A stretch of 64,000 nucleotides of DNA, taken from contig CAZUDQ010000007.1 in assembly GCA_964619365.1 (NCBI GenBank), positions 22,179-86,178 on the forward strand. The letters are read 5' to 3'. The position numbers and the translations under genes are program-made. Positions 21,074-38,557 of this stretch are shown here, in pieces; position 1 is the first letter of the stretch, and every line of letters begins with the position of its first letter. The stretch comes from an uncultured archaeon. GTDB taxonomy: Archaea; Altiarchaeota; Altiarchaeia; JAFGQM01. Below the pieces are notes generated by a model that saw only the letters and a program-made list of their open reading frames with translations, had not been told where the DNA came from and made no database searches.

Positions 21074-22765
21074 ATGGCAAGGCCGAAGGCTAAAAAGAGT
21101 GGGAATGCACCCAAAAAACTACAAAATCGGGCAAGAGTAGTTAGTTTGGATGGGGTATTCAGGCGCGCTGGAAAAACCGCGCCATTCAAGAACTCGTTGA
21201 CCTTCAGAGAGGCACTTAGAAAAGACTTAACACGATCTGTTGATGAGATTGAGCGACATGGCAGTGTAGATCAAGAACAATTACCGATAGGTCTTGCTAC
21301 ATCTCTAGAAACTAAGCGAAGGATTAGGGTTGTAGAAGAGAATGCAGCCAATGATACATGGATAAAAAATATGAAAGATGGGCAACATCCTTATCGAAAA
21401 AATAAAAGGACACTCTTGCCCGAAACTGGCATAGTGAAAATAAATGGCCAGGAGCATTATACGACAGGAAAAATCATATCTATGGCGGGCTCAAATTCTC
21501 CGTTTAAATCTCCCCAAGAACTCACGGAATATATCCGAAGGCTTCGACTCCGTACAGAAAAGCTTTCAGGCGGTGAATTCCGTCCATTAGGCTTGCCAAA
21601 GCTAAATGGTGTTAAAAACTATTCCAAAGGCAAACGAAAAAACGCAGGGCTTGTTGTTGAGGGGAAAAAGGCTAAGAAATGGATTTTAAAGTTGTCCCAG
21701 GGCGTTAATCCCTTAAATTCTAAAGAGGCGCTTCCAGGTAGATGGAAAAACTCCAACGGTGAAAAATATAGTACATTAAGTCATGCCGAAAAAGGGACTA
21801 ATATACCTCATGACACTATGAGGGGGGCAGTATTAAGACATTTTGACAGCACTAGAACCCTTCCGGAAGGTGTTGAGGAAGTAAACTGGGGCAAGACTAA
21901 GATTTTTTTGATATCTGACGGAAGACTTGCTTTATGGGGGGAAAGATATTCTGCCGGGATGAATCTAATAAAACCTGGAGAAAAGATTAAGGCTCAGGCT
22001 CAGTTTGTTGATGAAAACGGTAAAAAAATCTGGAAAGATGCAATTAGGCTAAGGGATACTGGTGAAGTTACTGGGGGAGTTTTAAGTAGAGATAGTGTAG
22101 CTTCTGCAATAAAGGGGGAGAGAATACCAAAAAGGTATATAGGTAGAAATAGTCTTTTTCCTAGGATGAAGTTCGTAGATAAAAAATATCTTGAAGATAG
22201 TGCAGAAAGGAAGAAAAATGGCAAACTTCCATATCATATTGAACAGAAAAATATTTCTCTTGTTTCAAAAAATTCAGGGGAAAAGTTTCGGCCCGTCTCC
22301 AATATTAAGGAACTCAGCAACGGCCACATAAAGAACTCGAAAGAATTCAATCTACTACGACGAAGAGGTAGAATACCAGATAGCGAAGTCATAGAGTATA
22401 AGGATGGAGGGAAAAGGTTAGCCATTTCAGAAAGATTTCTAAGCCTTATGACACAAAGAGATAAAAGGGGATTAACTTCAGTTCCGACAAAGGCTGAGAT
22501 AGAACTGCACGGGCATGGAATGAGTGATGTTGGAAGCCCAGAATGGGCAAAGGATAACAAGGGCGCATTCAAGCAGTATATTGAATTGGAATCTGCCATA
22601 AAAGCCAATAATCTGGGACCTGCTGAACTAAAGCGAAATCTAAGGGAAAGAAACAAGCTCCTAGAGGATATGGGACTAAACTTAAACAACAATAGGCGTG
22701 ACCCAGATGAAGTTATACTTCAAGGCCTGAATTTTTTAAGGGACTCTGAAAATCTAACAACTTAG
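21074..22765 (+). CDS. Large basic orphan protein with HTH-like repeats and GSPEWA C-terminal domain
   Basis: 563-aa open frame, very K/R-rich; C-terminus similar to downstream gene. Confidence 0.55.
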
Positions 22766-35971: not shown

Positions 35972-36745
35972 ATGGAAAAAAGACACGAACTTGAAGGCGT
36001 TTATGCCCTTTGGAAAAGGGAGATAATAAACTATTTCCGCGCGCACTCAAGGATAATCGGAAGCGTCGGGATGCCGCTATTCATATTCATAATTCTTGGT
36101 TCGGGGCTGACTGGAGTCATTGACTCAAGCGCGATTCCAGGTGGGGAAGATTACTTAACATTCCTGGCTCCAGGAATTATTGCAATGAGCCTTATGTTTG
36201 CTTCAACCATGGCTGGCGTTATTGTCATAATGGACAGGCAGTTTGGTTTCTTAAAAGAGACTCTTGTGGCGCCCATCAGACGAGTTTCTATTGTTACTGG
36301 AAAGGCTCTAGGTGGCGCTACGACCTCAATGATTCAGGGGACAATCGTTCTTTGTGTAGCTCTCCTTGTCGGGGCGAATATTGAGATTCTGGCAATAATC
36401 CCTGCAATGATATTCATGTTCCTTGTGGCAACGATGTTTGTAACTCTTGGAATAGCAATCGCCTCAACAATGGAGGATTTTCAAGGCTTCCAGCTGATTA
36501 TAACTTTCCTTGTGATGCCTATGTTCTTTTTGTCAGGTGCCATGTTCCCGCTTGATTCTGCGCCTGAGGCACTGCAGATCGCCGCGTACCTTGACCCTTT
36601 GACTTATGCTGTTGAAGGCCTAAGGGACCTTTTGACAAGTGCTGAAGGACAAATACCGTTTTACATCTGTCTTGGTATAATACTTCTTTTTGATGTGATA
36701 TTCTCAGCAATCGCAATCCGACAGTTTAGCAGGATAGAAGAATAA
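35972..36745 (+). CDS. ABC-2 exporter permease
   Basis: FLAPGII, DRQFGFLKETLVAP, FLSGAMFP, PLTYAVEGLR. Confidence 0.92.
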   Translation: MEKRHELEGVYALWKREIINYFRAHSRIIGSVGMPLFIFIILGSGLTGVIDSSAIPGGEDYLTFLAPGIIAMSLMFASTMAGVIVIMDRQFGFLKETLVAPIRRVSIVTGKALGGATTSMIQGTIVLCVALLVGANIEILAIIPAMIFMFLVATMFVTLGIAIASTMEDFQGFQLIITFLVMPMFFLSGAMFPLDSAPEALQIAAYLDPLTYAVEGLRDLLTSAEGQIPFYICLGIILLFDVIFSAIAIRQFSRIEE

Positions 36746-36783
36746 GCATCTTGGTTTATCTTCGTCTAAGGGCTAATCAAAAC

Positions 36784-36882
36784 AGCTTCGATGAGGATGC
36801 GAACAACCCCTGAATAAAGGGTTTATGGTAGTCTAAACTGCCTAAGGCTTTTTCTGATGACAAATAGGCGAACTGAGAGGCT
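36784..36882 (+). ncRNA. Box C/D methylation-guide sRNA targeting the 23S rRNA A-loop (predicted Um2552 and Cm2558, E. coli numbering)
   Basis: Terminal stem AGCTTC/GAGGCT; C box ATGAGGA 36791-36797; D' CTGA 36810-36813; C' CTGATGA 36854-36860; D CTGA 36873-36876; guides complementary to GGGUUGUUCGC and UUCGCCUAUU. Confidence 0.85.
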
Positions 36883-37225
36883 AACTCAAATATTCTGTAA
36901 ACTTGTTGTTCTCATCAACGAGGATAACCTTGGGACTTATTGGCTCGTCAGTAAGTTCAAAAGCCATAATTATGACCGTATCGCCTACTTTAACAAGGTT
37001 TGCAGCAGCGCCGTTAAGGCAGATTACACCTGAACCTTTTTCTCCCGCGATTGCGTAAGTTTCAAGGCGGTTTCCGTTATTGATGTCTGCAATCAGGACT
37101 CGCTCGTTTTCAAGGATTCCCGTCTTTTCCATTAACTCAGAATCTATTGTTATGCTACCAATATAATCTGGCTCGGCTTGTGTGACTGTTGCCCTATGAA
37201 TCTTTGCGTGGAGGATTTGTTTCAT
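36881..37225 (-). CDS. panD: Aspartate 1-decarboxylase (pyruvoyl-dependent)
   Basis: [17 protein letters not shown] (G-S autocleavage site), [19 protein letters not shown]. Confidence 0.95.
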
Positions 37226-38482: not shown

Positions 38483-38557
38483 TGCTCCCGCCGGGATTCG
38501 AACCCGGGTCTTCGGCTCGAAAGGCCGAAATGATTGGCCGTGCTACACTACAGGAGC
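38483..38557 (-). tRNA. tRNA-Glu(TTC), CCA not encoded
   Basis: Reverse complement GCTCCTG-TAGTGTAGCACGGCCAATCAT-TTCGGC CT TTC GA GCCGA-AGAC-CCGGG TTCGAAT CCCGG-CGGGAGC-A folds as a cloverleaf. Confidence 0.96.

Follow-up and report, generated by a model that had tools for sequence, protein, structure and literature searches.

A dual-guide box C/D sRNA of Candidatus Altiarchaeota, predicted to direct methylation of the 23S rRNA A-loop and carrying a hairpin between its D' and C' boxes

The window analyzed here, a continuous stretch of 64,000 nucleotides, lies on one contig (G000:C7) of a Candidatus Altiarchaeota metagenome-assembled genome (MAG), a 1.21-Mb assembly of 17 contigs that is 85% complete. 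Within the window, a gene for an ABC-2 permease (35972-36745, +) and a convergent gene for an aspartate decarboxylase, panD (36881-37225, -), are separated by a gap of 135 nt, and this gap holds a sequence with all the parts of a dual-guide box C/D sRNA (Table 1), the last 2 nt of which overlap the stop codon of the panD open reading frame. A TTTAT motif upstream may serve as an archaeal promoter element, but transcription may just as well run on from the ABC-transporter genes that precede the sRNA on this strand. When five neighboring proteins of the window were compared by tblastn with nine homologous loci, no match was found at E <= 1e-3, and the context of the sRNA gene therefore differs even within the genus. 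No Rfam family other than tRNA reached its gathering score over the window, and the sRNA thus falls outside all curated C/D families; under permissive settings its best match, to sR3, scored 9.9 bits where 41 are required. The tRNA gene in question, at 38483-38557 (-), follows the sRNA 1.6 kb downstream and matches RF00005 at 60 bits. The product of panD is a pyruvoyl aspartate 1-decarboxylase of the bacterial type (PF02261, E 7e-45), encoded here in an archaeal genome.

Table 1. Parts of the box C/D sRNA and a putative upstream element, in window coordinates.
Feature	Position	Strand	Basis
Whole box C/D sRNA	36784-36882	+	read from sequence
5' half of terminal stem, AGCUUC (DNA AGCTTC)	36784-36789	+	sequence and fold
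C box, AUGAGGA (DNA ATGAGGA)	36791-36797	+	sequence; columns conserved in alignment A1
D' guide, 12 nt, DNA TGCGAACAACCC, RNA UGCGAACAACCC	36798-36809	+	sequence
D' box, CUGA	36810-36813	+	sequence; invariant in alignment A1
D'-C' insert, 41-nt hairpin	36814-36854	+	sequence and folding
C' box, UGAUGA	36855-36860	+	sequence; invariant in alignment A1
D guide, 12 nt, DNA CAAATAGGCGAA, RNA CAAAUAGGCGAA	36861-36872	+	sequence
D box, CUGA	36873-36876	+	sequence; columns conserved in alignment A1
3' half of terminal stem, GAGGCU	36877-36882	+	sequence and stem covariation
Possible TATA-like element, TTTAT	36755-36759	+	~27 nt upstream of 5' stem, read from sequence

An earlier reading of the window, made from its letters and referred to here as the sequence-only reading, had placed a box C/D sRNA with a 6-bp terminal stem and two pairs of boxes at this site, and its coordinates, stem, and C/D and D'/C' boxes were borne out to the base. 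One of the six stem pairs is U.G, a single G separates the 5' half of the stem from the C box, and the C box deviates from the RUGAUGA consensus given in PMC6009581 at one position, the fifth, where U is replaced by G. The intervals that hold the guides, C to D' and C' to D, are both exactly 12 nt. Compared with the description of the K-turn in PMC7994747, the C/D end is predicted to have K-turn geometry, with G-A-U as the three bulged bases ahead of the GA of the C box. The fold of the RNA as a whole is unremarkable (z -1.14).

Both guides are complementary to helix 92 of the 23S rRNA encoded by the same genome (G000:C8:18871-21744), in a target region, AGGUUGUUCGCCUAUU, that occurs once. Positions are given in E. 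coli numbering, for which the region was aligned to an annotated E. coli 23S rRNA (a 2901-nt copy) and counted from the 3' end. Positions 2-11 of the D' guide form 10 contiguous Watson-Crick pairs with 2549-2558, and positions 1-10 of the D guide form 10 contiguous Watson-Crick pairs with 2554-2563. The N+5 nucleotide of the D' guide (A36805) faces U2552, position 2547 in the genome's own numbering, which in this alignment opens the five-base loop of helix 92, and the first A-loop base is named as E. coli U2552 in PMC4644070. The N+5 nucleotide of the D guide (G36868) faces C2558, position 2553 in the genome's own numbering, six bases past U2552 and in the 3' strand of the helix 92 stem. Each of these points had been proposed in the sequence-only reading (a dual-guide sRNA, overlapping targets in helix 92, and both N+5 assignments), and all of them hold when the guides are aligned to the 23S rRNA of this genome and of E. 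coli. The 16-nt target that this reading had expected stood at 15 of its 16 bases, the rRNA reading AGGTTGTTCGCCTATT, and failed at position 2548, which is A rather than G and lies opposite guide position 1. Five bases (2554-2558) belong to both target segments. The two guides should therefore be unable to pair with one rRNA molecule simultaneously, and each of them would have to open helix 92 in order to pair.

The sRNA is widely distributed among the relatives of the source genome. A scan of one genome per prokaryotic species with a pattern made of the C box, the D' guide, and the D' box returned 44 stretches, of which 23 were in records titled Altiarchaeota, Altiarchaeales, or Altiarchaeia and 16 in uncultured or unclassified archaeal MAG records; five were in bacteria, all of them without a second half-sRNA, and were dismissed as chance matches. 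For the phylum, we used 61 genomes of the class to which the window belongs, the class and phylum sets being identical and all 61 being MAGs of 57-97% completeness. The pattern of guide plus D box, GCGAACAACCNCTGA, was present in 37 of these genomes and absent from a reversed control. A covariance model (R1) was trained on 24 of 25 distinct dual-guide sequences, the one left out being the second copy in G035, which is without a terminal stem. It gave full-length type A matches at E <= 1e-13 in 34 of the 61 genomes and matches of any kind at E <= 0.01 in 46, the training sequences being among these matches. Across the 24 sequences, every cell of the homologous 5-bp terminal stem (120 of 120) is paired, with GC, AU, CG, GU, and UA variants; three of its pairs covary, 22 cells are changed on both sides, and the compensatory changes include members with long inserts. 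None of 500 shuffles reached the observed covariation, and control stems slid along the alignment were paired in 24-55% of cells.

The guides have also changed together with their target. Among the 23S rRNA sequences of 30 relatives, those of the window's family read GGUAAGGUUGUUCGCCUAU and those of all other families GGUGGGGUUGUUCGCCCAU, and the 2548-2560 pair is accordingly A-U in the window's family and G-C elsewhere. Position 7 of the D guide tracks the change at 2560 from C in other families to U in this one, being A in the window's family and G elsewhere, and positions 1 and 10, which are G in other families and form G.U wobbles, are A in the window's family and form A-U pairs. Compared with the compact homologues from the rest of the phylum, the D guide of the window thus differs at three positions, which match or improve its fit to the 23S rRNA of its own family. 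Position 1 of the D' guide, facing 2548, is A, G, or T among 22 compact relatives and is therefore not conserved.

Archaeal sRNAs generally have a short D'-C' spacer that forms a K-loop (PMC7994747, PMC6009581), and in this respect the window sRNA departs from them, with a hairpin of 41 nt where the sequence-only reading had noted one of about 40 nt. This alters the architecture of the RNA but not its class. The insert folds into helices of 5, 4, and 6 bp closed by a CUAA loop, at -12.7 kcal/mol (z -3.3 against mononucleotide shuffles), and all 11 of the D'-C' inserts that were folded are stable hairpins (z -2.5 to -5.2, likewise against mononucleotide shuffles). Most relatives, by contrast, are compact: the homologues at loci such as L012, L013, and L023 have the same boxes, both targets, 12-nt guides, and a 5-bp stem in a total of 62-64 nt, with a K-loop spacer of 3-5 nt. 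Among the dual A-loop sRNAs, long spacers occur in the window's family in G000 (the source genome, 41 nt), G002 (47 nt), and G001 (55 nt, in an sRNA with a CCGA D box), and the second, stemless copy in G035 is also long-spacered. A metagenome contig (L169) has guides of the type found in this family with a compact spacer of 3-4 nt, which indicates that the hairpin is dispensable for guide function. A repeat or a mobile element was considered as the origin of the insert and rejected, as blastn-short searches of the genome and of the fetched loci returned no copy of it and only chance matches of at most 16 nt.

We regard the hairpin as a tolerated, lineage-specific extension, and most likely it supplies a canonical stem by which C'/D' would be closed as a K-turn rather than as a K-loop. 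In G004 and G006, where the spacer reads GGCUUUC-GCAA-GAAAG(C/U)C followed by GG, the C-stem is that of a textbook K-turn, three-base bulge included, and shows a G-C/G.U change. In the minimum free energy fold of the window insert, two unpaired bases lie between D' and the first hairpin pair, and its internal K-turn geometry is for that reason not textbook and less clean than that of G004 and G006. In G002, the insert of the A-loop sRNA (L010, 509-614, -) and that of a tRNA-Met sRNA (L172, G002:C100) share their first 10 and last 19 bases, so that either the module has moved between paralogues or one gene was derived from the other; the shared ends suggest an exchange of the hairpin module between the two.

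The source genome itself encodes a second sRNA of this kind, at G000:C3:52494-52577 (-), with a 26-nt hairpin spacer and a D' guide identical in its 11-nt core to the U2552 guide of the window. Its D guide forms 10 contiguous base pairs with an intron-containing pre-tRNA-Met(CAU) (G000:C1:207733-207865, -), with N+5 on C34; two of the 10 pairs are with intron bases, leaving 8 contiguous pairs to the spliced tRNA. Previous work has described sRNAs that guide Cm34 in tRNA-Met and pair in part with the intron (PMC2584109), and the difference seen here between precursor and spliced tRNA matches that description. The second type of sRNA is present in seven of the eight genomes of the window's family, the eighth being 64% complete, and its spacers across the family are hairpins of 20-66 nt. 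In all, about three credible C/D sRNAs are visible in the source genome. In the third candidate (G000:C5, ~22630-22710, +), a C box is followed by a non-canonical stretch of 19 nt before CUGA, and after a spacer of 11 nt come a C' box and a guide of 12 nt that forms 9 bp with 16S rRNA, placing N+5 at U730 of the genome's own 16S rRNA.

The proteins of a C/D ribonucleoprotein (RNP) are encoded in the same genome, namely fibrillarin (245 bits), Nop5 (195 bits), and L7Ae (94 bits), as would be expected under the sequence-only reading, which had set RNA-guided modification against the stand-alone enzyme RlmE. No credible RlmE was found either in the source genome (85% complete) or in the 61 genomes, all MAGs of 57-97% completeness. 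In the source genome, Pfam FtsJ gave only partial matches, of 24 and 19 bits, to proteins whose best families were the generic Methyltransf_11/25/31. As the MAG is 85% complete, this absence alone is no proof. Across the 61 genomes, however, the best FtsJ matches were partial and at most 38 bits, with one exception, and the RlmE equivalog TIGR00438 exceeded its cut-off in none of them (best 34 bits); the same search was positive in the controls M. jannaschii, H. volcanii, and M. acetivorans. The lack of a credible match across the phylum weighs more than that in the single genome, although it is drawn from MAGs of 57-97% completeness, and RlmE appears to be missing from the phylum. The exception, at G020:C6:2627-2863 (L133), is the only FtsJ-like match above 40 bits in the phylum (71 bits, model positions 1-79, at a contig end) and could be a real RlmE fragment or contamination.

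RNA-guided formation of Um2552 has been predicted in archaea since 2000. Specifically, P. abyssi sR25 is predicted to guide it (PMC2584109), and Dennis et al. 2015 predicted guide-directed methylation of U2552 in five of seven species and of C2556 in two (PMC4644070). Since such guides are already in print, the window sRNA is a known kind of RNA with a variant architecture: it is new for the phylum and absent from Rfam, and its kind and its main target, Um2552, were known before. The likeness to sR25 and to the five-species predictions is one of RNP type and target, the first base of the A-loop, and not of demonstrated sequence homology; the window sRNA differs in its phylum, in its second guide, on C2558, and in having a 41-nt hairpin for a K-loop spacer. 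The available text of PMC4644070 names only U2552 and C2556 in the loop, and we found no precedent for Cm2558. The same product, Um2552, is made in bacteria and haloarchaea by the protein RlmE (RrmJ, FtsJ), as in E. coli, and a homologue has been assigned to it in H. volcanii, but this is a stand-alone enzyme that is not RNA-guided (PMC2584109). In yeast, methylation of the equivalent site (Um2921 of 25S rRNA) is guided by snR52; the RNP is there a snoRNP of the eukaryotic type, backed up by the protein Spb1, and no homology is implied (PMC2584109). The compact Altiarchaeota D guide has a counterpart in sR106 of M. maripaludis, in which the D guide likewise ends, ahead of CUGA, in the 10-nt core GAUGGGCGAG; the D' guide of sR106 is unrelated, and neither of its guides has a predicted target (PMC4644070 supplement). 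Given the shared core, helix 92 may be the target of sR106. In two other sRNAs of M. maripaludis, sR105 and sR107, D' and C' are also set farther apart (PMC4644070 supplement). In eukaryotic box C/D snoRNAs whose D'-C' regions are long and structured, C' and D' are joined by a stem, not a short loop. Guides and spacing vary in eukaryotes, however, whereas the window sRNA keeps strictly to the archaeal spacing of 12 nt.

Taken together, the locus almost certainly encodes a conserved and, to judge from its sequence, functional dual-guide box C/D sRNA for the A-loop. The anatomy of the RNA, its complementarity to 23S rRNA, its conservation and covariation, the presence of the protein genes, and the failure to find RlmE are the observations on which this conclusion is based, and from them we infer its transcription, its assembly into an RNP, both methylations, an order of guide use, which the sequence-only reading took to be sequential, and a role for the hairpin. 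The reading that we favor, and consider very probable, is that this is a working guide RNA of Candidatus Altiarchaeota that directs methylation of the A-loop and tolerates a hairpin extension. On this model, L7Ae, Nop5, and fibrillarin would join the sRNA to form the RNP. The D' guide would unwind the 5' strand and loop of helix 92 and bring U2552 into the active site of fibrillarin, yielding Um2552, and the D guide would pair with the loop and the 3' strand and bring C2558 into the fibrillarin site. Both guides would act before helix 92 folds, one at a time, and the hairpin would leave the 12-nt guide spacing, and hence the geometry of the RNP, untouched.

Several other explanations must be weighed against this one. 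Intergenic DNA might come to resemble such an sRNA by chance, in its boxes as in its complementarities; this would fit with the unremarkable folding score of the whole sequence, but nothing else speaks for it. Of 200,000 random 12-mers drawn from the same genome, 1.1% have at least 10 contiguous base pairs to 16S or 23S rRNA, and here two independent 10-bp guides, each in the register set by its box, land on a single rRNA hairpin, a coincidence that stands at 1.1% for each guide before register or proximity is demanded. The strict half-motif TGA[TGC]GA-N12-CTGA occurs nine times in the whole 1.2-Mb genome, against three in a reversed-sequence control, and four of the nine belong to the A-loop sRNA and one paralogue; four others look like chance matches. 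With conservation across the phylum added, the distribution of the guide pattern, the covariation of the stem, and the covariance-model matches refute chance, and its probability is negligible. We consider it highly improbable, too, that splicing removes the 41-nt insert as an archaeal intron and leaves a compact sRNA. It is true that compact homologues exist and that this genome splices an intron from a tRNA-Met, but the predicted folds, judged by eye, contain no bulge-helix-bulge, that is, no 3-nt bulges around a 4-bp helix. A somewhat less remote alternative, though still improbable, is that the copy in the window is decaying, the hairpin in the K-loop having inactivated it and the second sRNA, for U2552 and tRNA-Met, now doing the work. 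The redundancy of the U2552 guide within one genome, the non-consensus C box, the CCGA D box of the sister genome G001, and the fact that four of the eight genomes of the family (G003, G004, G006, and G007) show only the second type of sRNA would all be in line with decay. Yet three genomes have preserved all four boxes, the terminal stem, and the 12-nt spacing of both guides despite strongly diverged inserts, every insert has kept a stable hairpin, and the compensatory changes in the terminal stem extend to long-insert members.

The D guide leaves more room for doubt. The sRNA might be real and install Um2552 while its D guide does not lead to methylation of C2558, acting instead as an antisense chaperone for the 3' strand of helix 92 or persisting by linkage as a relic. 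Position 2558 lies within the stem, where the available text of PMC4644070 names no modification, and sR106 of M. maripaludis has the same D-guide core with no predicted target (PMC4644070 supplement). However, the D guide fits exactly, at 12 nt, between canonical C' and D boxes, its conservation is phylum-wide, it has been updated to follow the change at 2560, and no feature of its sequence sets it apart from an active guide. We think a chaperone or relic unlikely, though less so than the other alternatives, and keep to the reading of a functional dual guide.

As far as our literature search shows, in which no paper on Altiarchaeota guide RNAs was found, these are the first to be described from the phylum, and they point to the probable source of the near-universal Um2552 in a lineage apparently lacking RlmE. 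Less ordinary than the target are the closing of C'/D' by a hairpin, two targets that overlap in one small helix and take in both of its strands, a U2552 guide that is duplicated within a very small repertoire of sRNAs, and the apparent lack of RlmE throughout the phylum. In vitro, the short C'/D' loop reportedly determines whether mono- or di-sRNPs assemble, and the debate over these two forms turned on that loop (PMC5062973, PMC7994747), which lends interest to natural sRNAs in which C'/D' is closed by a stem. We would tentatively go one step further, to a view that is possible although on balance doubtful, namely that in a phylum in which RlmE apparently was never present or has been lost, Um2552 is the core job of a minimal C/D system, and that in the window's family an exchangeable hairpin module has taken the place of the K-loop, making these sRNAs natural two-K-turn guides. 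The idea of a minimal system rests on some three sRNAs per genome, two of them with the same U2552 guide. If the two-K-turn view is true, these sRNAs could assemble differently, as mono- or di-sRNPs, from the K-loop sRNAs that have been studied, and the target of the orphan Methanococcus guide could be settled.

The survey of the phylum also brought to light several variants of the sRNA. At seven loci (L011 in G014, L014 in G024, L042, L059, L060, L063, and L069) the order of the guides is swapped, with C2558 first and U2552 second, so that the dual-guide sRNA is circularly permuted; a terminal stem of its own and a short spacer are present in each. Eight genomes have a U2552 guide that begins with ACGAAC or AUGAAC at its 5' end and not with GCGAAC (L156, L159, L161-L165, and L168, in G026, G016, G028, G023, G033, G053, G049, and G030), with guide pairs 10-11 weakened or lost and positions 2-9 kept. 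Finally, a tandem paralogue lies ~130-190 nt upstream of the compact sRNA at L016 (~1322), L017 (~1381, -), and L027 (~1341), which shares the stem and C box of the compact sRNA but has the guide GCGAACUACC, lacks a D' box, and contains a long hairpin-rich sequence.
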